Shown one piece after another: positions 662 to 62,403 of a DNA stretch of 64,000 nucleotides (the stretch's first letter is position 1; the number at the start of each line of letters is the position of its first letter). This DNA is from Shigella phage phi25-307, in the sequence record MG589383; one strand, 5' to 3'. The notes under the pieces were generated by a model that made no database searches, had not been told where the DNA came from, and saw nothing but the letters and a program-made list of their open reading frames with translations. Made by a program: the position numbers and the translations under genes.

Positions 662-2749
662 CTATCCTTGGACAAATTTAAACGGAACTGATTCTAAATC
701 CATTAAAGATGCTAACAATTTCAATCCTTTAGGAGCACTAGTTTTTTCTACAAATGAGGAGAACGATATCGGCTCATCTGATTCGATTTCACCCGTCATA
801 GCAACCACCTCACCTGTTTCCATGAGAACATCACCGTCGTAAATGACAGCTTCGTCCAACTGGTCCGAGGACATGACTTCAGCTTGAATAAATTTAAGGT
901 TGGATTCTAAACCTGCACCAGTGTCAGATGACGCATCTGTAATTTTATTTATCTGCAAGAGAATGCCTCTAGGCAAAATAATTTCTTGCTCATTAGGGTG
1001 ATTACTCAACTGTCCAGGATAAATCACGTTAACTTTATGGGCGCCATCAATAGCCCATCCAACGTTAACACGGATTTGGTCTGGTGCATGCATAGCTGTT
1101 CTTACTTGACTAGGAGAAATAGTAACACCTTCGTCATTATTGTCAATGTTAAGCTCTTTGCGAACTTCTTCAGGAGCAAGTCCAAGGGCAACGTTCTCTT
1201 TAAACCCACCGAAAATAATAGGAGCTAGTGAAGTGGAAACATAGTTTCTGAAGTAGAATACCTTATTTTTAACCATTGCTTCGTAAATAGGCATTCTGAT
1301 AGACTGAGCTCTATATAACGTTAGTCCTTCAGGTAAACGGTCTCCATTTAAAAACGCTGAATCAAGACCATCAATAGCGCGTTTAACTTCATCTTCATCT
1401 GCAACATCGTAAAAATCTGGTTTATAACGACCTAACAGCATATTATTGATATCGGTATACGCAGAAGAGGCATATTCACGAATAGCTCGTTTTTCAGCAA
1501 CAGAGTATTGATTAGGGACCCGATTCATTGTTATATTAAAGGTGCCTCTAGCCGATTCTCGTGCATAAGTATACATCACATTAGACAAGAACGCTGATTT
1601 ACGTTGTTTCCAAGTTTTTTCAGATACTTCAGCTAAAACGTCGTCAGCCAGTTGGAAATTATCACGTCTAAAATCTTCAAACCATTCGTCTTTAATAGAG
1701 TCTGCAATTTCATTTGCAGCTTCAACAAAAGCAGTTAATGCTTTAACAGATGTTGTTTTTTCAGTTTTAATTTTCTTAGCAAACTTTTCTAAAGTTGGCT
1801 TAATAACACTACCATAAGAAACTTCATCAGCAAATCTAAAGGATTCATCAATACGATTATAAATCTTATTTTCGATATCAGCAACTAAAGTGCCTTTTGC
1901 TGTGGACGATGCTTGGGCTAGTACGATTTCATATGCTTCAGGAAGTAATTCGGCTGTAGCTGGGCCACTAACTTCTTTAGCAGAATTTTCGTATTTCTGG
2001 AATAACTCACCTTCTTGTCGGTCAGCTTCTAAAGATTGACTTGCTGCAATAGCACGACGAGAAATTTTAGTACGAGCAATAACAGGCTTATCTTTACGTT
2101 TTTCTTCTACAGCAGCAATAGAACCAGCGATAGCCGTTTCTTTGGTGACCTTTTCGCCAGTCTTTTTACTCACATAAACTTCGCCAACATCAGAATCTAC
2201 TTTCGTGTACAACTCTGTGTTAATGTTAGGGATGCCTTTAATATCTTCAATGTTGGCATTTTTGCGAACCATCATCACATAGGTGTGTTTACCTGTGAAT
2301 TGATACATTGCCGACAATACTTTAAAACGACCACCGGTTTTAGTAGAAACTAAACGAGCAAGAAGAGTTTGAAGCTGCTGTCCGCGTCCTTTCAATTTCT
2401 TGGTAGGGAATCGGAATAGAACTGCATCCATACGAAGAGCTTTAACCTGTTCATATACTGTATTGAAAATGGTGTTGATTGCATCAATAGGAGCAGGACC
2501 AAGGCCATTTTTCAATTCAGCGAGATTGCCCTTTTCAGATAGACTCATAATAACAACATGAGCGTATTTGTCGCCAAGTTTAACTTGTTTTACAGCATCA
2601 CCTTCGGAAAGGTAAGAGAATAAGCGAACTACGATGTTTGTATCGATATCACCAATTTTCCAGACTTGTGGAACTTTAGCTTTAGGGTTCAAATTGACGA
2701 CAGGAAGACTGCCTTCAGATTCAAACACTTCATTTAATTGTTCAGACAT
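662..2749 (-). CDS. alt: Alt-like ADP-ribosyltransferase (head-packaged), 695 aa
   Basis: C-terminal ART motifs in order: R (LYRAQSIR), STS (YVSTSLAP), E-x-E (NEQEIILPRG); size close to T4 Alt (about 682 aa); position between gene 54 and ligase as in T4. Confidence 0.8.
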   Translation of the reverse strand: MSEQLNEVFESEGSLPVVNLNPKAKVPQVWKIGDIDTNIVVRLFSYLSEGDAVKQVKLGDKYAHVVIMSLSEKGNLAELKNGLGPAPIDAINTIFNTVYEQVKALRMDAVLFRFPTKKLKGRGQQLQTLLARLVSTKTGGRFKVLSAMYQFTGKHTYVMMVRKNANIEDIKGIPNINTELYTKVDSDVGEVYVSKKTGEKVTKETAIAGSIAAVEEKRKDKPVIARTKISRRAIAASQSLEADRQEGELFQKYENSAKEVSGPATAELLPEAYEIVLAQASSTAKGTLVADIENKIYNRIDESFRFADEVSYGSVIKPTLEKFAKKIKTEKTTSVKALTAFVEAANEIADSIKDEWFEDFRRDNFQLADDVLAEVSEKTWKQRKSAFLSNVMYTYARESARGTFNITMNRVPNQYSVAEKRAIREYASSAYTDINNMLLGRYKPDFYDVADEDEVKRAIDGLDSAFLNGDRLPEGLTLYRAQSIRMPIYEAMVKNKVFYFRNYVSTSLAPIIFGGFKENVALGLAPEEVRKELNIDNNDEGVTISPSQVRTAMHAPDQIRVNVGWAIDGAHKVNVIYPGQLSNHPNEQEIILPRGILLQINKITDASSDTGAGLESNLKFIQAEVMSSDQLDEAVIYDGDVLMETGEVVAMTGEIESDEPISFSSFVEKTSAPKGLKLLASLMDLESVPFKFVQG

Positions 2750-2805: not shown

Positions 2806-2993
2806 TAATCCACAATCGGGAGCAAAGTACGATAAACTTCAAAATTAGGGCCTTTTTCGTACCCATTAACGTTATCTACGAAAACCCGATACGAATTTTC
2901 ATTAGGAAAATCTAATATAATCTGAGAGCAAGAGGTGGAAACATCTCCACCATCCTTCTTAGCTACAATAACTGTTTCTAAATAAGCTTTCAT
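2805..2993 (-). CDS. Hypothetical protein, 62 aa
   Basis: Start trimmed to the ATG overlapping the ligase stop (TAATG at 2991-2995); ends at the terminator hairpin. Confidence 0.45.
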   Translation of the reverse strand: MKAYLETVIVAKKDGGDVSTSCSQIILDFPNENSYRVFVDNVNGYEKGPNFEVYRTLLPIVD

Positions 2994-4486
2994 TATAAAC
3001 CTGTCTGGGACCACGGTCCAAATACGTCTTCAAACGAATCCGCTTCTGTTTTATCAAAACGGAACCCTTTAATAATTGGAAGGAAAATACCTACAGTACC
3101 TTCACGGCCTTTAGAATGAACCCAACCATTACATTCACAATCAGCGATACGTCCAATTAATTTACCTTCACGAGCTTCGGTCATTAATCGTTCACGGTCT
3201 AAATCATGACGCTCGTCTAAAGGAATAAGAACCTTTACACCGTCAACTGTTTTATGAGTTGTATCTTTAAACCCTGAACCACAATCGGTTGTAATACGAC
3301 GACAACGTGATACGAGTTCGACACCACCTAATTTGTTAGGGTCTTTAGAGTGTTCATAGTATCCTACAACTTCTAAAGCGATATCAATAACTTCTTTAAA
3401 TTTAATTAGGTTCTTAGAGCGTTTGTTTTCCCAATATGAATCACGGTTTTTAAGGATAATACCTTCAAGACCTTGGTCAACATATTTTTTATAAACTACT
3501 TTAGCTTCGTCAAGATTACGAACTAACTGATTTTCAATTGGTTCAATTCGCTTAAAGCCTTCAGCCATATTTTCAAGAGCAGCAAAACGAACATCGTATT
3601 TCTGACCTTTAATTTTGCCGTCAGAATAGACTTCATCTAAAGGAACATAGTCCCAGGCTTGAAGAACCATACCTTCCGCTTCTTTAGGAGAAATAGTCCC
3701 TTGAAGAGATTTATTTGCTAAACCATTTGAAGTGCTACGGTCTGCAACTTGTACTTCTTCGGATTCTTCATTATCACCAAATAAGAACGACAGGTCATTT
3801 CCTGAGCTCACAGCCTTTTTAATATCGAATGAATGATAAACTAATTCACCGTCGATTAAAACCCCATTAGGGTGTCTTTCACGAGCTTCTTTAGTCATTT
3901 CCATTAGTTCATCCGCTAATAGAGTAAGACCATGGTATTCGTTACCAGCACGAGAAAAGAATTGAACACCATCATCGCGAACTTCAGCGAAACAACGAGC
4001 ACCATCTGCTTTTAATTGGGCAAATGCGGGCCATTTAATATTTTTAGTAATCAATTTCTCATCATATGCAGATGCTAACATCTGTGGTTGCAATTGAATA
4101 AGTCCAGGCCACACCTTATTCGCGATAGACACTGAAGCACCTACTTCAAGGTCGCGCATCATTACACGACGAAGGACTTCTACATCATCAGGTTTACCAT
4201 CAGCGATATAACCCATGAGCTCTTTAATTGCAGCATTACCGGTGAGTTTACGAGTGGCTAATGTGAACTCAATAAAATCCAACATGTCATCTAATTCAAG
4301 AAGACCATATGCTTGAGACCTTTCACCCGGTCCTGGCCATTTCTTAATATAATACTGGATACCACGTGCATATGTTAAACGATACACACGTTCAAGTAAT
4401 TTGTTGTCCTTATTTTTCTTAAGGATTTCTTGTTTTGTTTTAGTAGAACCGATCGCAGCTATTTGGTTTAAAATATCTAAAATCAT
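2993..4486 (-). CDS. 30: ATP-dependent DNA ligase, 497 aa
   Basis: Adenylation motif KADGAR; N-terminal region closely resembles T4 gp30 as remembered; size and position between alt and rIII match T4. Confidence 0.92.
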   Translation of the reverse strand: MILDILNQIAAIGSTKTKQEILKKNKDNKLLERVYRLTYARGIQYYIKKWPGPGERSQAYGLLELDDMLDFIEFTLATRKLTGNAAIKELMGYIADGKPDDVEVLRRVMMRDLEVGASVSIANKVWPGLIQLQPQMLASAYDEKLITKNIKWPAFAQLKADGARCFAEVRDDGVQFFSRAGNEYHGLTLLADELMEMTKEARERHPNGVLIDGELVYHSFDIKKAVSSGNDLSFLFGDNEESEEVQVADRSTSNGLANKSLQGTISPKEAEGMVLQAWDYVPLDEVYSDGKIKGQKYDVRFAALENMAEGFKRIEPIENQLVRNLDEAKVVYKKYVDQGLEGIILKNRDSYWENKRSKNLIKFKEVIDIALEVVGYYEHSKDPNKLGGVELVSRCRRITTDCGSGFKDTTHKTVDGVKVLIPLDERHDLDRERLMTEAREGKLIGRIADCECNGWVHSKGREGTVGIFLPIIKGFRFDKTEADSFEDVFGPWSQTGL

Positions 4487-4752
4487 TTGATGTCCTCGAT
4501 TTTGGTTACGGTTCTATTATAAGCCACTTCATCTAGAAGCGATTTCAGCGTTTTCTGATAAGTGGTAATCCATTTACCGAGACCTTCAACATAATATTCT
4601 GAAATGTAGATGAACCCTTGTTCAACACACTCTTTAAATATTTCTGCGTCTTTTACTGAACGAAACATTGGCCAGTCTCGAAAGAACATGTTAACGTGAC
4701 CGTAGTCACGCGTTGTGTTTTTGCCATCTGTAATATCATGAACTACAAACAT
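4483..4752 (-). CDS. Hypothetical protein, 89 aa (30.1 position)
   Basis: ORF with ATGA overlap onto the ligase start; no recognisable motif. Confidence 0.5.
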   Translation of the reverse strand: MFVVHDITDGKNTTRDYGHVNMFFRDWPMFRSVKDAEIFKECVEQGFIYISEYYVEGLGKWITTYQKTLKSLLDEVAYNRTVTKIEDIK

Positions 4753-4761
4753 AATTAACCC

Positions 4762-5586
4762 TTAACAATTTGTAGACCAAGTCCATTTGGACGAATCTAA
4801 AGGAAAGTTTTGAATCGTCCACCATGGCTGCATATCGGTTGGTCCTGGGGTTCGCCAGGTATATGGAGTACGTGTTGTCGAGGGGCCACCAATTTGATTA
4901 GGCCATGCACCTGGACTTGTTGTACCAGATTCTTTAAGCAAATCCGCCAATCGTTTTAAAAGGTCTTCACGATCTGAATCTGAATTATGCTCGGGTGGAA
5001 CCAAACGAGATTCAATATCATCCCACGTGTGTACACGTTGTGCAGTACGAGGAATGGCATCACGTTCACCACGAGCCAACCAATAAATCGGTACATTAAG
5101 AATTTCTGCTGCATGGTCACAATGATGAGCTAAATCGTCAACGTAACAAATCACGTTATATTTTGTTTTAGCTAGTTCGAATAATTGTTCCTTTGAAGAA
5201 TCATGACCACACATCATTACTTCAGAGAAAGCGCCTGGGAACAAAGCATTCAAATTAAATTGTCTATTCAATCGAGCATCAATTGAATCACCTAGCGCCG
5301 TCACGGCTACAAAATTATAGTCTTCTTTTAGTTTATTGATAACTCGAAGAGCATCCGAATAAGGCGCTAAGTAACGAATAAAATCAGAGCTATTATATTT
5401 TTCTATTAATTGTTTACCAAGGTTATCGTCGGTATTGAACAGTTTACCAGGAGAAATAAATTTTTCGTCCTGAATCATTTTTAAAATATGTTCTAATGGA
5501 AGATTATATTTTTGGGCAAAATAAGGAAGTCCAGATTGCCAGCTTAAACATACACCATCAATATCAGTCAAAATAGTAGGTTTCAT
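4762..5586 (-). CDS. HAD-superfamily phosphatase-like protein with a low-complexity P/T/W-rich C-terminal tail, 274 aa (30.2 position)
   Basis: HAD motif I DIDGV near the N-terminus, later VTALG and YVDDL motifs; last ~70 aa are Pro/Thr/Trp-rich; ATGA overlap with the upstream NADAR gene. Confidence 0.5.
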   Translation of the reverse strand: MKPTILTDIDGVCLSWQSGLPYFAQKYNLPLEHILKMIQDEKFISPGKLFNTDDNLGKQLIEKYNSSDFIRYLAPYSDALRVINKLKEDYNFVAVTALGDSIDARLNRQFNLNALFPGAFSEVMMCGHDSSKEQLFELAKTKYNVICYVDDLAHHCDHAAEILNVPIYWLARGERDAIPRTAQRVHTWDDIESRLVPPEHNSDSDREDLLKRLADLLKESGTTSPGAWPNQIGGPSTTRTPYTWRTPGPTDMQPWWTIQNFPLDSSKWTWSTNC

Positions 5587-6050
5587 AAAGAGTCTCTTAA
5601 TAGGTTTAACACATCAATAAATTCAGCTTCGGTTAGTATTGTATCATCTTTTGTTAGACCGCTAGCCATGCTGTGCTTCAAAATTTTTCCTTTAGAGGCT
5701 TGTAAGGCATCACGAAACCCCTTGTTTTGGATCGCGGCTTCAAAATATGCATTTGTGTATAATTCTTTCCACGCTTCGGAGTATCTTGAAAATGGAACTC
5801 CTAACCAGAAGAGAGTTCCACGGTCCTGAGCTCTTGCATAAGACCTTCCAGCTTGCTGTGCAGCCAATCCAGACATCCCAAATATGCGTCTTTGTTGTTC
5901 AACATTTTTCACCTTACATCCTTGGAGAAATCCTTCAAGTCCTCCGAATTGAATACCATCCATAACGAAAGGCCATTGAGCAAAGTTACTTAATGCACAT
6001 GACGGCCATTTGAAATTGCTTCTTATTTCTAATTCAGACATCTTTAACAC
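5583..6050 (-). CDS. NADAR / YbiA-like domain protein, 155 aa (30.3 position)
   Basis: Motif LSNFAQWPFVMDGIQF...EGFLQGCK matches the FSNFAAWP...DG...E.YFQA.KF core of E. coli YbiA as remembered. Confidence 0.6.
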   Translation of the reverse strand: MLKMSELEIRSNFKWPSCALSNFAQWPFVMDGIQFGGLEGFLQGCKVKNVEQQRRIFGMSGLAAQQAGRSYARAQDRGTLFWLGVPFSRYSEAWKELYTNAYFEAAIQNKGFRDALQASKGKILKHSMASGLTKDDTILTEAEFIDVLNLLRDSL

Positions 6051-6252
6051 TTATAATTTCAACATCAGCCCAATGGCCATATCCAGGTATACGGTCTTCG
6101 ATAGATAAATTTCCGTCATTTTTAGGCATTTTAATTGACGTAACGTATGGTTCTAAACGGTTTTCTGCATAATACGGAAAAACGTCTGTTACACGATAAG
6201 TAACTTCGATCATTTCCGTACCAAACAATTTCTGGATTAATTTATTCAACAT
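6034..6252 (-). CDS. Hypothetical protein, up to 72 aa (start uncertain)
   Basis: ORF overlaps neighbours at both ends; the true start may be the internal Met (MIEVTYR). Confidence 0.4.
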   Translation of the reverse strand: MLNKLIQKLFGTEMIEVTYRVTDVFPYYAENRLEPYVTSIKMPKNDGNLSIEDRIPGYGHWADVEIISVKDV

Positions 6253-6439
6253 GTTTCAACCCTTTAATAGGAGATAACTCTTTACCCATACGTATGTCAG
6301 AAGTCCAATCAACCCATTGAACAGCATACGCTTCATTGATAATTCCAGCGCCGGTTTTAAATTCAGGGAGAACTTTAAAAATCACCCCAGGAATTCCAAC
6401 ACCTTTTAATTGAACTGTTTGTGCTATTAAAAATTTCAT
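6242..6439 (-). CDS. Hypothetical protein, 65 aa
   Basis: ORF directly downstream of the early promoter at 6464-6493. Confidence 0.45.
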   Translation of the reverse strand: MKFLIAQTVQLKGVGIPGVIFKVLPEFKTGAGIINEAYAVQWVDWTSDIRMGKELSPIKGLKHVE

Positions 6440-6463
6440 ATTTTTCCACTTACTAAAGAAATC

Positions 6464-6493
6464 ATTATACTCTAATCCGTCCTTGGATGTAAA
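6464..6493 (-). promoter_or_regulatory. Early promoter (-35 TTTACA, -10 TATAAT)
   Basis: Minus strand reads GTTTACATCCAAGGACGGATTAGAGTATAAT. Confidence 0.5.
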
Positions 6494-7108
6494 CTACTTA
6501 ACGAAATTAATTTCTACTGGATGAACAACAGGTTGAGCAGTGATATATTGAGTAATTGCTTTCATGACTAGAGCTTCAGAACCAGGATTTTTCTCAACGA
6601 ATTCACGTGCTTGGTTATGAGCTTCAAGTTCACTTAGTAAACCACTTCGTTGGCATCCACGGTCTTGAGTACCCTGTTCAGATAAAAAGACGACGATGTA
6701 TTTTTCATCGTCATACGGTTTAGACGGTTGAGCAAATGTTCCTTTACTTCCAAAAGGAGAGTTATGACGCCACATCACGCCGTGAGGAGTTTCAACCTTC
6801 ATATATTCGTGCGGGCCATTTTTCTTAGTTTCTTGATGTGGAACTTCGTGGACCTTAGGGTTAGGACATTCAATAAAATGCTCATCTAAATCGGTCGAGA
6901 ATATTAAAGTAAAACAATTACTGAATTTACCAACACCTGCCTGATAAATTTTACCTTCAGAAGTTCTAATTTCACAAACCGAGCCGGCATCAGTAACTTC
7001 TAAAACTTCAAAAGGCTCGATAAGGTCATATGAGAACATGTTTTTAAGGCGTGGAGTAATATCCCCATTTTTAAAATTCATTTTATAAAAAGTATTAACT
7101 TTAAACAT
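6494..7108 (-). CDS. Hypothetical protein, 204 aa
   Basis: Long ORF preceded by GAGGAAA and the intercistronic hairpin at 7121-7136. Confidence 0.6.
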   Translation of the reverse strand: MFKVNTFYKMNFKNGDITPRLKNMFSYDLIEPFEVLEVTDAGSVCEIRTSEGKIYQAGVGKFSNCFTLIFSTDLDEHFIECPNPKVHEVPHQETKKNGPHEYMKVETPHGVMWRHNSPFGSKGTFAQPSKPYDDEKYIVVFLSEQGTQDRGCQRSGLLSELEAHNQAREFVEKNPGSEALVMKAITQYITAQPVVHPVEINFVK

Positions 7109-9593: not shown

Positions 9594-10175
9594 TTATTCA
9601 CCACAAAAGTTTCGGATTTGTTCCCAATTCAGAGAACGAAGATTATTACGAGAGTACTGAATTACTTCAATACCGGCTTGTTTTAGAATGTCTGCCCAAT
9701 TTTCAGGAGATCTGTCATATAATTCTGCGTATACAACCTTTTTAATACCTGACTGCGTAATAGCTTTAGTGCAATCAGGACATGGAGAAAGTGTCGTATA
9801 CAACGTAGCACCTTCAATAGAATTACCTTTACGAGCTGCAAACAAAATGGCATTCAATTCAGCATGGATTTCGTTATTAGCAGACCATGCACTATGAGCG
9901 GCCCGATGTTCTTTAGCCAAAACAAAATTATCCACCCGTCCAAATGCTGTAGTGCCTTCTTTATGTCCGGCAACGATGACCGGGCTTGGTTTATTCTTCA
10001 ACCAACCGTTTTCGGATGCATGTTCACAACAGTTAACGCCACCTGCTGGTGAGCCATTATATCCAGTAGAGATAATGCGTCCATCTTTTTCAATGACGGC
10101 ACCAACTTTCCATGAACAACATTTTGATTCTTGAGAAATCAGATATGCAATCTGAAGGTATGTGCTAGCTTTCAT
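9594..10175 (-). CDS. cd: dCMP deaminase, 193 aa
   Basis: Zinc-binding deaminase motifs HAELNAI and PCPDCTKAI; same length as T4 Cd. Confidence 0.9.
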   Translation of the reverse strand: MKASTYLQIAYLISQESKCCSWKVGAVIEKDGRIISTGYNGSPAGGVNCCEHASENGWLKNKPSPVIVAGHKEGTTAFGRVDNFVLAKEHRAAHSAWSANNEIHAELNAILFAARKGNSIEGATLYTTLSPCPDCTKAITQSGIKKVVYAELYDRSPENWADILKQAGIEVIQYSRNNLRSLNWEQIRNFCGE

Positions 10176-11167
10176 TATTGAACCTTATTAATATAAGTTA
10201 ACAGCTCTTTAGTTTGTTCCCAACCGATGCACGCATCGGTAACGGAAACGCCATAGGACATATTATCAGAAATTTTTTGATTTCCTTCATGTAGGAATGA
10301 TTCTATCATAATTCCTTTGACCAAATCATTAGCTGCTAAATTTTTACCAATACCAATTTGATTGCTATAATACCCATCAGCGTTTGCGTGGCTACAGTCA
10401 ACCATTACATAATGATTCAGACCTAATGCACTTGCTTTGTTAGAAGCTTCTTGAATATCAGAAGAATGATAGTTCGGGCCGTTAGTCCCGCCACGCAATA
10501 CGATATGCGTATTCTGATTACCTTCAGCTTCAACAATGCCTACAGTACCATCGACGTCCATACCCATATACCGATGAGGCCAGGCGGCACTATACATCGC
10601 GTCTGTAGCTACTTTAATAGAACCATTGGTTGCGTTCTTGAAGCCTACGCACATCGGTAGACCTGAAGCAATTTCACGATGTGTCTGACTTTCAGTCGTA
10701 CGGGCGCCAATAGCAACCCATGAGAAAATACCAGAAAGATACTTAATCGTGAATGGGTCTAATACTTCAGTTGCTAATGGAAGTCCCATACGTAGAAGTT
10801 TACGACACAATGTTCGTGCAACTATAAGACCGTGGTTCATATCAAAACTTCCGTCAAGATATGGATCATTTACAAGACCTTTCCAACCTACGGTAGTTCG
10901 AGGCTTTTCAAAATAAACGCGCATCACTAACAGAACATTAGGAAGACGAGTTTGAAGTTCAGCCAGACGTTTGCCGTATTCAACAGCAGCAATAGGGTCA
11001 TGAATTGAACAAGGACCTACAACAATAAGTTTGCGTGGGTCTTCACCGTTCATAATCGAATTAACTTGTTCGCGATGAGAAGCCACTTGTGATGCGTAAG
11101 CTTCCGACAAAGGAATAATCTCAGCCAGTTCTTTTGGAGAAATAAGTTTTCTGACGATAGGTAACAT
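10175..11167 (-). CDS. 3-deoxy-D-arabino-heptulosonate-7-phosphate (DAHP) synthase, class I alpha (AroG/AroF/AroH-like), 330 aa
   Basis: Long runs shared with remembered E. coli AroG: VVGPCSIHDP, MRVYFEKPRTTVGWKGL, IGARTTESQ.HRE.ASGL, VGFKN, ILRGG, SHAN, VTDACIGWE. Stop overlaps the cd start as TAATG; own SD TAAGGA. Confidence 0.9.
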   Translation of the reverse strand: MLPIVRKLISPKELAEIIPLSEAYASQVASHREQVNSIMNGEDPRKLIVVGPCSIHDPIAAVEYGKRLAELQTRLPNVLLVMRVYFEKPRTTVGWKGLVNDPYLDGSFDMNHGLIVARTLCRKLLRMGLPLATEVLDPFTIKYLSGIFSWVAIGARTTESQTHREIASGLPMCVGFKNATNGSIKVATDAMYSAAWPHRYMGMDVDGTVGIVEAEGNQNTHIVLRGGTNGPNYHSSDIQEASNKASALGLNHYVMVDCSHANADGYYSNQIGIGKNLAANDLVKGIMIESFLHEGNQKISDNMSYGVSVTDACIGWEQTKELLTYINKVQ

Positions 11168-56432: not shown

Positions 56433-56585
56433 AATATTTTCCTCTGTCTTACGGACGTTAGGTCATTTAGCTGATATGTCCTATAATATCATGCCCTCAG
56501 GTAGTGTACACTCTTTTTTCGTAAAATGCTTTAATTTTTTATGTGTTATAATGGTTCTGAGTTCCATCCGGTTATTCCAATCCAG

Positions 56586-57194
56586 TCAGTAACCGACAAT
56601 AGACAGATTCCAGATTGTATAACGTCCATCTTGAATAATAGAATCTACACGCAGTGTAGTCCCTATAGGGAGCATAAATTCACATTCGTCAGATATAAGT
56701 CTAGCATTAGACCGTCTTGTCGCTTCAGGGAAAGCTCCATTGAACTCACAAGATGGTGCAGCCAGAATCATATTAAGCATATGTTCACGGAAGTTGAAAG
56801 CAAATGGTGCATCTTTGATGCAGAACATATTAAATGTTCCGTAAAAATTATATGAAGCGAAGTTACGTGCTACACCAAACACCGGACTAAAGCTCATTAC
56901 TCTATCAAATTTAATAATACTACCAACGCCTTTATCATCGAGTGTGGCCATAGTTTTCTTAGAGATTCCACGATACATTGTCTCAGGAACAGAAGACGTC
57001 CAATTTCTACGAACGATTGAACTTAAATCTTTTTGGATGCTGTCTGGCTTGTTTTCCATACATTGCCACAGTACACTTTGTTCAATGTCGCTGAATTGCT
57101 CATCGATTTTGTACTGAAGCATATCTTGATAATCCGGGCATTGAGCACGACGAACCATTTCTTCAATTTCACACTCGTTATACGGCATAAACAT
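56586..57194 (-). CDS. modA: ModA/ModB-family ADP-ribosyltransferase, 202 aa
   Basis: ART triad in order: R (TMYRGIS), S-x-S (VMSFSP), E-x-E (DECEFMLP); size close to T4 ModA (200 aa). Only one mod paralog is present. Confidence 0.6.
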   Translation of the reverse strand: MFMPYNECEIEEMVRRAQCPDYQDMLQYKIDEQFSDIEQSVLWQCMENKPDSIQKDLSSIVRRNWTSSVPETMYRGISKKTMATLDDKGVGSIIKFDRVMSFSPVFGVARNFASYNFYGTFNMFCIKDAPFAFNFREHMLNMILAAPSCEFNGAFPEATRRSNARLISDECEFMLPIGTTLRVDSIIQDGRYTIWNLSIVGY

Positions 57195-61743: not shown

Positions 61744-62403
61744 TTAACCTCGATTCATAAATGCATTAAATATTTGGTCATCAACAGAAATTTCTAATTC
61801 GACTTCAATTGCTTCAGCCTTTTCTTCAGGTGGTAATTCGTATCCACACACTACAATTTTTTCATCAATATCAAAATATACAGAAGCAATATGATTAATG
61901 TTATTTTCGGTTAAGTCTAAATCAACATCAACATCTTTTTGACCTACACTTAAAGGATAACTAATACGGGTTATTTTATTATCTTTAACAAAGAGTCCAC
62001 CGACATACTCTGTACTACGTTTGAAGTTTACACGTTTCCGAAATGAAAGATATGATGCATCTTTACCATGAGCTCGGCTCATAGGACATAATGAATAGCT
62101 AGAATAAGAGATGTCAAATCCTACACCTTCAATATGAGCCAACGTGTCATGATTAAACCAATTATAATCATATGCCAAATCCATTATATTGTAATATGTG
62201 AAAGGCACCGGATTAACATCATACGTTGTACCTTTAAAATCTGCCCAGGCAACGATTTCGTTATCTTTAACAATTACAAAAATTACACCAATATGGTATC
62301 CGTTATTATTTTCATTCGGCGTTATATTATAACATTGTGCATTAGGAAATTTACCATATTTAAACGGCGCGTTTTTGTGCATGTAATAAATCATATTATT
62401 CAC
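61744..62403 (-). CDS. Hypothetical protein, 219 aa
   Basis: ORF in the 61-sp interval. Confidence 0.55.
   Translation of the reverse strand: MNNMIYYMHKNAPFKYGKFPNAQCYNITPNENNNGYHIGVIFVIVKDNEIVAWADFKGTTYDVNPVPFTYYNIMDLAYDYNWFNHDTLAHIEGVGFDISYSSYSLCPMSRAHGKDASYLSFRKRVNFKRSTEYVGGLFVKDNKITRISYPLSVGQKDVDVDLDLTENNINHIASVYFDIDEKIVVCGYELPPEEKAEAIEVELEISVDDQIFNAFMNRG

Follow-up and report, generated by a model that had tools for sequence, protein, structure and literature searches.

Gene 30.3 of the phage DNA analysed here (positions 5583–6041) is, as judged from its sequence, a near-identical ortholog of T4 adfN, and very probably encodes a NADAR-fold enzyme that removes DarT1-placed ADP-ribose from phage DNA and so counters DarTG1. 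The gene lies on the minus strand of the window, by which we mean the whole 64,000-nucleotide stretch of Shigella phage phi25-307 (record MG589383). A sequence-only reading had proposed a counter-DarT NADAR enzyme at this locus. That main inference was correct, but it was already known for the T4 ortholog, gp30.3, which was renamed AdfN (anti-DarT factor NADAR) in 2025 (Johannesman et al., Nat Commun 2025, PMC11825919). By analogy with the T4 protein, the 97%-identical window allele would be expected to act in the same way.

The longest ORF at this site begins at a GTG at 6050, but translation in fact starts from the ATG at 6041. This gives a protein of 152 residues, as in T4, in which the catalytic residues known from the literature are numbered E36 and K43. 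Read from this start, the window protein was identical to T4 gp30.3 at 147 of 152 positions, with no gaps through residue 152. The five substitutions (K11R, M56L, E89P, I120V and M125I) are conservative or of surface type, and none is catalytic. Compared with T4 AdfN (PMC11825919), the window protein has equal length, the same E36, K43 and H123, an intact C-terminal helix and the same slot, flanked by 30.4 and 30.2 and upstream of DNA ligase, and the gene order around adfN is that of T4. The flanking proteins were far more diverged from their T4 counterparts, gp30.4 being 53% and gp30.2 69% identical, the latter with a different C-terminal tail. At the nucleotide level, bases 4400–6500 were 98.6% identical to Escherichia phage S143_2, and the window is Tequatrovirus (T4-like) DNA. 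The Pfam model PF08010 (Phage_30_3) matched the window protein over model positions 1–138 of 138, with E of about 3.6e-69 to 3.8e-69 and 231 bits (cut-off 36). The SNFAxWP...DG...E.F.Q..K core that had been noted in ORF 5583..6050 on the minus strand is present, as ...ALSNFAQWPFVMDGIQFGGLEGFLQGCK..., and the PF08010 match supports it far beyond chance.

Table 1. Features of the adfN locus and its surroundings; positions are those of the window
Feature	Position	Strand	Basis or remark
alt, ADP-ribosyltransferase	662..2749	-	PF03496 E 3.8e-28; about 2.8 kb from adfN
Gene 30, ATP-dependent DNA ligase	2993..4486	-	PF01068 E 1.9e-26; conserved downstream partner of 30.2
Gene 30.2 homolog, predicted HAD-superfamily, 5'(3')-deoxyribonucleotidase-like; residues 1-195 plus disordered variable C-terminal tail	4762..5586	-	
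ATGA overlap of adfN stop and gene 30.2 start, 4 nt	5583..5586	-	ORF coordinates and sequence
adfN (T4 gene 30.3), predicted 152-aa NADAR-fold DNA ADP-ribosylglycohydrolase, full-length allele	5583..6041	-	T4 identity, PF08010, AF2 model, Foldseek
C-terminal helix of AdfN, codons 138-152, intact	5586..5630	-	model helix 138-151; T4 alignment gap-free to 152
H123 codon of adfN	5673..5675	-	invariant in 76 members; directly after model strand 120-122
Active-site motif of AdfN, codons 16-43, ALSNF...DG...EGFLQGCK	5913..5996	-	E36 = 5934-5936; K43 = 5913-5915
8-nt overlap of gene 30.4 stop and adfN start, ATGTCTGA	6034..6041	-	sequence
Gene 30.4 homolog, 72 aa	6034..6252	-	immediately upstream of adfN; phrog_2042 E 4e-35
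Best sigma-70-like promoter match, TTTACA-18-TATAAT, 11/12; candidate early promoter	6464..6493	-	gap upstream of 30.5-30.4-adfN-30.2-30.1-30

Across 76 members of the AdfN family, with identities ranging from 35 to 88%, residues A16, L17, S18, N19, F20, F25, E36, G37, F38, Q40 and K43 were invariant, and the catalytic residues E36 and K43 are both present in the window protein. Its active-site segment aligned with the same motif in E. coli YbiA (2b3w; PF08719, NADAR/DUF1768), the N-terminal motifs being near-identical (YbiA SNFAAWPIKVDG...EHYFQAQK, window SNFAQWPFVMDG...EGFLQGCK). A search of PDB chains with the single sequence found YbiA only, at E 1.5, and with the family profile YbiA came up at E 0.008, the match being confined to the N-terminal motif. 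These sequence matches are too weak alone, so we used a structure model instead; AF2 models were computed from alignments without the T4 reference rows. The model of window AdfN had a pLDDT of 93.3 and a pTM of 0.88, with helices at residues 35–41, 47–54, 58–66, 89–105, 107–115 and 138–151 and hairpins at 25–27/30–32 and 76–79/82–85. The top three Foldseek matches in the PDB were YbiA 2b3w (E 1.4e-4, TM 0.65), PnNADAR 8bau (ADP-ribose bound) and the G. lovleyi NADAR 8bat. These three NADAR structures matched at probability 0.96–1.00, and every other match was at or below 0.04. The predicted NADAR fold and the orthology to T4 gp30.3 bear out the earlier assignment to the NADAR superfamily.

The profile evidence that had been suggested for this assignment, a match to the Pfam NADAR model PF08719, did not appear for the window protein, even at E ≤ 1. 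The same model matched 30 of the 76 family members (best E 1.5e-07), and one relative (P0082) bears PF08010 and PF08719 annotations on a single protein. At the sequence level, the link between the window protein and PF08719 is transitive, not direct. We do not take the missing direct match as a refutation, since PF08010 is a model of its own for the NADAR fold, and the window protein showed this fold as well as the transitive sequence link.

One residue of the last strand serves as a clade marker among NADAR proteins, being His in phage NADARs, Glu in the YbiA family and Asp in the DarG1/BC4488 family. This position was His in all 76 AdfN family members, including H123 of the window protein. 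Of the label 'NADAR (YbiA-like)', the first part holds, but the second does not in the strict sense, as the protein falls in the phage gp30.3 clade and lacks the Glu of the YbiA family proper. YbiA itself carries the last-strand Glu, has a housekeeping role in riboflavin metabolism, and was 18% identical to the window protein over the structural alignment. Identification of the window protein as a DarG1/BC4488-type antitoxin was likewise rejected, since it has His in place of Asp and no darT gene adjoins it.

An alternative explanation is that the main role of the protein is the destruction of soluble ADP-ribose-derived signals, or a YbiA-type housekeeping N-glycosidase reaction acting, for example, on riboflavin intermediates, with DNA de-ADP-ribosylation as a secondary activity. 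YbiA is indeed both the best structural match and the sole sequence-level PDB match, and Iyer et al. (2022) put forward low-molecular-weight ADP-ribose derivatives as the main targets of phage NADARs. We nevertheless consider this explanation extremely improbable. The YbiA-defining Glu has become His in window AdfN, and direct DNA de-ADP-ribosylation as well as a DarTG1-specific requirement have been published for the T4 ortholog. T4 30.3 was also non-essential on a defence-free host, where 27 of its 28 sites were hit by transposon, which indicates that there is no housekeeping requirement for it.

The published properties of T4 AdfN favour the counter-DarTG1 explanation. AdfN of T4 stripped ADP-ribose from DarT1-modified DNA and its E36A variant did not (PMC11825919), and T4 gp30.3 hydrolysed guanosine-ADPr in vitro, not thymidine-ADPr (PMC11125620). 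The DarTG1 resistance region of chimeric phages mapped to 30.3, and DarTG2 was not countered by AdfN (PMC11825919). In RB69, which is DarTG1-sensitive, a T insertion at nt 411 of 30.3 causes a frameshift and the loss of the last 15 residues. T4 AdfN cut at the RB69 truncation point had reduced activity, and the E36A, K43A and truncated forms of T4 AdfN rescued RB69 only partially (PMC11825919). The window allele is the same gene at the same genomic position as this natural inactive allele, but it is free of the nt 411 frameshift and keeps the last 15 residues. In a transposon screen of T4 on DarTG1 (HIDEN-SEQ preprint), 30.3 showed a log2FC of -7.25 (padj 0), and 30.3 and 30.4 were the only significant genes.

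Window AdfN shares its fold with the DarG1/DarT1-associated NADAR antitoxins (BC4488 family; E. coli C7, G. lovleyi 8bat; Schuller et al. 2023, PMC11543638), at 16% identity to 8bat over the structural alignment. The catalytic pair E36/K43 of AdfN corresponds to E88/K95 in the E. coli C7 NADAR and to E43/K50 in PnNADAR, whereas at the third catalytic position DarG1 has Asp where window AdfN has His. Guanine-ADPr hydrolysis is a reaction common to DarG1 NADARs and AdfN, and by analogy the window allele may be expected to carry it out as well. The genomic settings differ: DarG1 genes adjoin darT1, whereas the window adfN is an orphan, with 30.4 and 30.2 as neighbours and no ADP-ribosyltransferase gene adjoining it.

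We propose that adfN is probably expressed early, as part of the tightly packed co-directional string 30.5, 30.4, adfN, 30.2, 30.1 and ligase. The sigma-70-like site upstream of this string (Table 1) is a candidate promoter only, since promoter-like sites were not enriched in a scan of the whole region (28 sites, compared to 21.3 ± 4.1 in shuffles). AdfN would then bind the ADP-ribose that the host DarT1 toxin puts on guanine bases of phage single-stranded DNA, and cleave the N-glycosidic bond by hydrolysis, which would free the ADP-ribose and leave an unmodified guanine. Replication of the phage DNA could then proceed in DarTG1-carrying cells. AdfN would in this way behave as an 'orphan antitoxin', copying the enzymatic activity of DarG1 without toxin binding. 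Capture of an orphan antitoxin by a phage to undo a DNA-modifying defence of the host was established for T4 in 2024–2025. A homolog of adfA is also present elsewhere in the window; together with the intact adfN, it leads us to predict that this phage is DarTG1-resistant.

The published data on T4 indicate that the simple picture of a free-standing enzyme is incomplete. Despite its real counter-defence role, T4 AdfN is reported not to rescue uninfected cells from DarT1 toxicity, an effect that the sequence-only reading had looked to as a check, and was unable to replace DarG1 there. It was fully effective only in T-even infection, and poor for non-T-even phages (PMC11825919). This raises the question of whether AdfN needs gp30.4 as a T-even-specific accessory factor, in which case the functional unit would be 30.4 together with adfN. 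We regard this as unlikely, though gp30.4 could be the factor missing outside T-even infection. The effect on 30.4 in the T4 DarTG1 screen was log2FC -1.79 (padj 0.014), it was the only significant gene besides 30.3, and the authors of the preprint argued against widespread polar effects in the HIDEN-SEQ libraries. Because the two genes overlap by 8 nt, an insertion in 30.4 should still reduce the translation of adfN, so that the partial effect is what a textbook polar or coupling effect would give.

In favour of a joint unit, a recognisable 30.4 was found solely beside adfN, the 8-nt overlap was kept in all close relatives with a 30.4-like ORF, and where 30.5 and 30.2 persist in the absence of AdfN, no match to 30.4 was obtained either. 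On the other hand, gp30.4 evolves fast (compare its identity to T4 with that of AdfN), and can therefore be missed by tblastn. Distant AdfN homologs were preceded by unrelated genes. A search for gp30.4 beyond close relatives gave only 11 loci, all on contigs with an AdfN gene already known in that region, and these loci therefore provide no independent test of the pairing. Gene 30.4 is the sole lead of this analysis from which a new experiment on the T-even-limited action of AdfN could start.

The sequence-only reading had also proposed that AdfN, the neighbouring HAD phosphatase gp30.2 and Alt act together as a local ADP-ribose/nucleotide-processing module. The HAD enzyme might, for example, process the ADP-ribose or nucleotide freed by AdfN, or AdfN might reverse Alt modifications. 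The dependence on T-even infection suggests a phage helper and would suit such an arrangement, as would the ATGA overlap of adfN and 30.2 and the recurrence of AdfN-HAD adjacency in some distant T4-like lineages (34–47% AdfN identity; Acinetobacter- and Aeromonas-type genomes). The coupling to the HAD gene was correctly described as far as the 4-nt overlap goes. A specific pairing did not follow from it: along the 30.5-to-30 string almost all neighbouring genes overlap or lie very close together, and the overlap of adfN with 30.2 is thus not specific. Alt, for its part, is not next to adfN. Four genes (30.2, 30.1, DNA ligase and alt.1), about 2.8 kb in all, lie between them. Alt modifies protein arginines, whereas the linkage characterised for NADARs is the N-glycosidic one on guanine, which also counts against a module.

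Gene linkage across T4-like loci pointed the same way. Among 73 loci with 30.2, ligase lay downstream in 68 and AdfN upstream in 36, so that the HAD-AdfN linkage is gone in about half of them. For AdfN homologs below 50% identity, a HAD gene was found within 1.8 kb in 5 of 61 cases and the linkage was lost in the other 56. In at least 10 T4-like genomes both genes were present but 54–69 kb apart. A Pfam scan of the genes flanking two relocated AdfN homologs (L065 and L056) gave a YadA-anchor-like match and a DUF only, and this context was uninformative. In the T4 DarTG1 transposon screen, 30.2 (log2FC -0.12, p 0.61), alt (-0.01, p 0.97) and 30.1 (-0.01) showed next to no change, which makes 30.2 and alt dispensable for T4 on DarTG1. 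The HAD gene and Alt were rejected as AdfN partners on the synteny counts and the published transposon data. With the string-wide tight junctions added, the module found no support and is, for DarTG1, largely refuted; we hold it to be very unlikely. For annotation, gene 30.3 need not stay 'hypothetical', and the HAD gene should not be labelled as part of an ADP-ribose module. Gene 30.2 should rather be regarded as a gene in its own right, syntenic with DNA ligase and not a partner of AdfN.

The HAD-like call for the ORF at 4762..5586 was itself right, as seen from its N-terminus (MKPTILTDIDGVCL), its HAD motifs and its predicted fold. Among 66 members, D8, D10 and K132 of gp30.2 were invariant and T96, D150 and D151 were at least 90% conserved, which covers the four HAD catalytic motifs (the DxD nucleophile, Thr/Ser, Lys and the acidic DD pair). 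The model had a pLDDT of 85–98 over residues 1–200, mostly above 90, and below 50 past about residue 230. It showed the Rossmannoid fold of HAD proteins together with a cap domain, and Foldseek returned 93 PDB matches at E ≤ 0.001; among the matches listed, all were HAD enzymes or designs on that scaffold. The best ones (2jao, 3bwv and 2i7d; E 9e-8, target TM about 0.6) are all deoxyribonucleotidases, and 2jao was also the best PDB match by sequence (E 0.12). No Pfam or NCBIfam model exceeded its curated cut-off for gp30.2 (HAD_2, 16 bits against 23.8; TIGR01428, 12.7 against 125.4). PF06941 (NT5C) was weakly matched by 11 of the 66 relatives, with a best E of 0.002.

Compared with cdN and mdN (NT5C, PF06941; 2jao, 2i7d, 1mh9), gp30.2 has in common the HAD core, a helical C1-type cap and the DxD/Thr/Lys/DD motifs, but it is only 14–17% identical to them and has an extra disordered tail of ~75 residues. 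Identity to T4 gp30.2 rose to 86% over the HAD domain. The notion that the window tail is a frameshifted T4-type tail was rejected, as no GIEYL-type motif occurs in any frame. A literature search on the function of gp30.2 found none, and T4 gene 30.2 is dispensable (HIDEN-SEQ preprint). On its motifs and modelled fold, gp30.2 is predicted to be a deoxyribonucleotidase-like phosphatase of the HAD family with intact catalytic motifs. As a weaker variant of the idea that AdfN needs an accessory factor, gp30.2 could have a different role, linked to DNA ligase, in counter-defence or in the nucleotide pool.

The 30.3 ORF contains the SNFAxWP-type motif (ALSNFAQWPFVMDGIQFGGLEGFLQGCK) on which a sequence-only reading had based its assignment to the NADAR/YbiA family. 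The Pfam search proposed in that reading, against PF08719 (NADAR), gave no match for the ORF itself, which matched PF08010 (Bacteriophage protein GP30.3) with an E-value of 3.8e-69. The GTG at 6050 is merely the start of the longest ORF. Translation from the ATG at 6041 yields a 152-aa product, the length annotated for T4 gene 30.3 (459 nt, 152 aa; NC_000866), and this product aligned gap-free with T4 gp30.3 with 147 of 152 residues identical (97%). With numbering from the ATG, the E and K of EGFLQGCK correspond to E36 and K43 of the literature. A homology search returned 108 relatives, all with PF08010. Across an alignment of 76 full-length members (35-88% identity), P13, A16, L17, S18, N19, F20, F25, E36, G37, F38, Q40, K43, Q50, A61, A112, H123, L136 and T137 were invariant. 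Conservation therefore extends to the mutationally tested E36 and K43 and to the clade-marker His, all three of which the window allele has.

The AlphaFold2 model built from the 76-member alignment was confident (pLDDT 93.3, pTM 0.88) and showed helices and two small hairpins, as the YbiA fold is described. At sequence level, the link of this protein to NADAR was weak: YbiA gave E = 1.5 when the single sequence was used and 0.008 for the family profile. PF08719 was nevertheless matched directly by 30 of the 76 relatives (best E = 1.5e-07). The window protein belongs to the gp30.3/AdfN clade of the NADAR superfamily. The residue on the last strand is His in phage NADARs, Glu in YbiA and Asp in DarG1-type NADARs (PMC11125620, PMC11543638). 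The superfamily part of the earlier assignment therefore stands, on PF08010, the fold and E36/K43, whereas strict YbiA-family membership was rejected because His stands in place of Glu. We also rejected a DarG1-type antitoxin, for lack of both the last-strand Asp and an adjoining darT gene.

Johannesman et al. (Nat Commun 2025, PMC11825919) gave T4 30.3 the name adfN ('anti-DarT factor NADAR') and traced resistance to the host toxin-antitoxin defence DarTG1 to this gene with chimeric phages. In the same study, the allele of the DarTG1-sensitive phage RB69 was frameshifted and lacked the last 15 residues; RB69 was rescued by ectopic adfN(T4), but only partially by E36A, K43A or the truncated form. 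Purified AdfN(T4), but not E36A, took ADP-ribose off DarT1-modified DNA, and AdfN did not bind DarT1 (PMC11825919). Independently, T4 gp30.3 hydrolysed guanosine-ADPr but not thymidine-ADPr (PMC11125620, Toxins 2024); the construct, 'E. coli T4 phage NADAR (gp30.3)', spanned residues 1-208 compared to 152 aa for the T4 protein, and may have come from another phage or carried added sequence, a caveat on this in vitro result. In a T4 transposon screen (HIDEN-SEQ preprint), 30.3 insertions vanished on the DarTG1 host (sheet S6: log2FC -7.25, adjusted p 0). In uninfected cells, T4 AdfN failed to relieve DarT1 toxicity, so the toxicity-rescue check suggested with the sequence-only reading would mislead as a negative; T5 and Bas25 were barely helped.

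The candidate counter-defence role proposed from the sequence agrees with this published activity, that is, E36-dependent hydrolysis of ADP-ribose from DarT1-modified DNA and protection of T-even phages from DarTG1 in vivo; at full length and 97% identity, the window allele would be expected to act as T4 AdfN does. By analogy with the PnNADAR-ADPr structure and C7 NADAR mutagenesis (PMC11543638), the catalytic Glu would touch the distal ribose, the Lys would coordinate the phosphate, and the last-strand residue, here His, would complete the catalytic centre. The central finding had already been predicted and shown by experiment; the raw-sequence inference, though good, opens no new question, and the window contributes one further intact adfN allele. 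Several records of T4-like phages (AdfN-family proteins P0007, P0015, P0017 and P0053) had AdfN fragments only, of 86-109 aa, some of which also matched Pfam families of neighbouring genes. Such fragments could represent alleles disrupted in nature, as in RB69, in which case DarTG1 sensitivity is predicted for those phages. The internal out-of-frame gene 30.3' (75 aa) annotated in T4 is interrupted in the window by an in-frame stop after 34 codons, which argues against 30.3' as a conserved gene.

Features of the window discussed in the text
Feature	Coordinates	Strand	Remark
alt	662-2749	-	then alt.1
gene 30, DNA ligase	2993-4486	-	
30.1	4483-4752	-	
30.2 (HAD gene)	4762-5586	-	
30.2, C-terminal ~75 residues	4762-5000	-	
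30.3/adfN	5583-6050 as longest ORF	-	ATG start at 6041
30.3' region	5678-5905	-	
30.4	6034-6252	-	72 aa
30.5	6242-6439	-	followed by 30.7, 30.8, rIII, 31, cd
204-aa ORF	6494-7108	-	phrog_17531, function unassigned
DAHP synthase	10175-11167	-	330 aa; PF00793, E 1.8e-74
Mod-like region	~56583-57188	-	
adfA homolog	61747-62394	-	

The proposal that adfN, 30.2 and alt form a local ADP-ribose/nucleotide-processing module fared less well. adfN and 30.2, translationally coupled in the earlier account, do overlap, by ATGA (4 nt). Overlaps were also found at 30.5/30.4 (11 nt), 30.4/adfN (8 nt) and 30.1/ligase (4 nt), with a 9-nt gap at 30.2/30.1; the ATGA overlap is unspecific to this pair and reflects ordinary T4 early-region packing. 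The alt gene, placed beside the NADAR gene in the earlier account, lies ~2.8 kb and four genes away. Synteny was scored among at most 80 listed loci per anchor gene, which are phylogenetically non-independent, so the counts are descriptive: 30.2 adjoined adfN in 12/12 close relatives, as expected from shared ancestry, and lay within 1.8 kb in 5/61 loci of homologs below 50% identity. Around 30.2 itself (73 viral loci with adequate flanks among those listed), ligase was downstream in 68 and AdfN upstream in 36. At least ten T4-like genomes hold an AdfN homolog (38-44% identity) in a region of small unknown genes 54-69 kb from 30.2 (AdfN loci L027, L029, L042, L046, L054, L056, L065, L077, L078, L079; 30.2 loci L142, L130, L153, L116, L101, L108, L097, L103, L100, L099). 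Within T4-like genomes, the NADAR gene has relocated or been acquired anew. On DarTG1, the T4 screen showed 30.2 (log2FC -0.12, p 0.61), 30.1 (-0.01), alt (-0.01, p 0.97) and adfA/61.2 (-0.34, not significant) all to be neutral. On these results, the module is not supported, at least for DarTG1.

The call of a HAD-like phosphatase for 30.2 was right. The DIDGV-type motif is present (MKPTILTDIDGVCL), and all four HAD motifs were kept across 66 relatives (D8/D10, invariant; T96; K132; D150-D151). In the model, a HAD core predicted with confidence carries a helical cap, and the chain is disordered after ~residue 230; the best PDB matches were 5'(3')-deoxyribonucleotidases, cytosolic and mitochondrial, along with further HAD hydrolases. 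No sequence model scored above threshold for the 274-aa protein (HAD_2 reached 16 of the 23.8 bits required; nothing useful in NCBIfam), and 11 of the 66 relatives weakly matched PF06941 (NT5C). 'Deoxyribonucleotidase-like' is the best refinement. Identity to T4 gp30.2 was 69% overall and 86% over residues 1-195. A literature search for gp30.2 found no paper; T4 transposon data show 30.2 to be non-essential on a plain host (72/72 sites hit). The C-terminal ~75 residues, disordered in the model and rich in W, P and T, are hypervariable among relatives, many of which have no such tail. A G-I-E-Y-L-x-x-Q-P-T-like motif occurs near the end in T4 and many others; the window allele had no such motif in any of three frames and shares TWRTPG with T4.

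Only two genes passed adjusted p < 0.05 in the T4 DarTG1 screen, the second being 30.4 (log2FC -1.79, adjusted p 0.014; HIDEN-SEQ). The 30.4 stop codon overlaps the adfN start, and the screen result is most simply read as polarity or translational coupling that affects adfN. We consider it rather improbable that gp30.4 is the T-even-specific helper of AdfN postulated in PMC11825919. Close relatives always had a 68-72-aa 30.4-like ORF with the exact 8-nt overlap, and a gp30.4 scan matched only contigs with an AdfN gene already known in that region; loci with 30.5 and 30.2 but without AdfN gave no match. Distant AdfN homologs were preceded by unrelated genes, and window gp30.4 was 53% identical to its T4 counterpart compared to 97% for the adfN product.

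The adfA (T4 61.2) homolog, 67% identical to the T4 DarT1-binding inhibitor, keeps a His aligned to T4 H165, presumably the position of RB69 R164H. Together with adfN, this gives the phage two anti-DarTG1 genes, a layered anti-DarTG equipment as described for T4. The source phage is T4-like: bases 4400-6500 share 98.6% identity with Escherichia phage S143_2, and the region is common to 692 phage records, mainly Escherichia and Shigella Tequatrovirus. The first 12 kb has minus-strand genes only, and T4-like order holds up to the dCMP deaminase gene (cd), departing from T4 beyond it. The 204-aa ORF occupies the slot of the 95-aa T4 gene 30.6. Directly upstream of cd, where T4 has cd.1/cd.2, is a gene for DAHP synthase, the first shikimate-pathway enzyme, and a candidate auxiliary metabolic gene. 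A single region was matched by both T4 ModA and ModB (33% identity); the phage seems to carry one divergent Mod-like ADP-ribosyltransferase instead of the T4 modA-modB pair.
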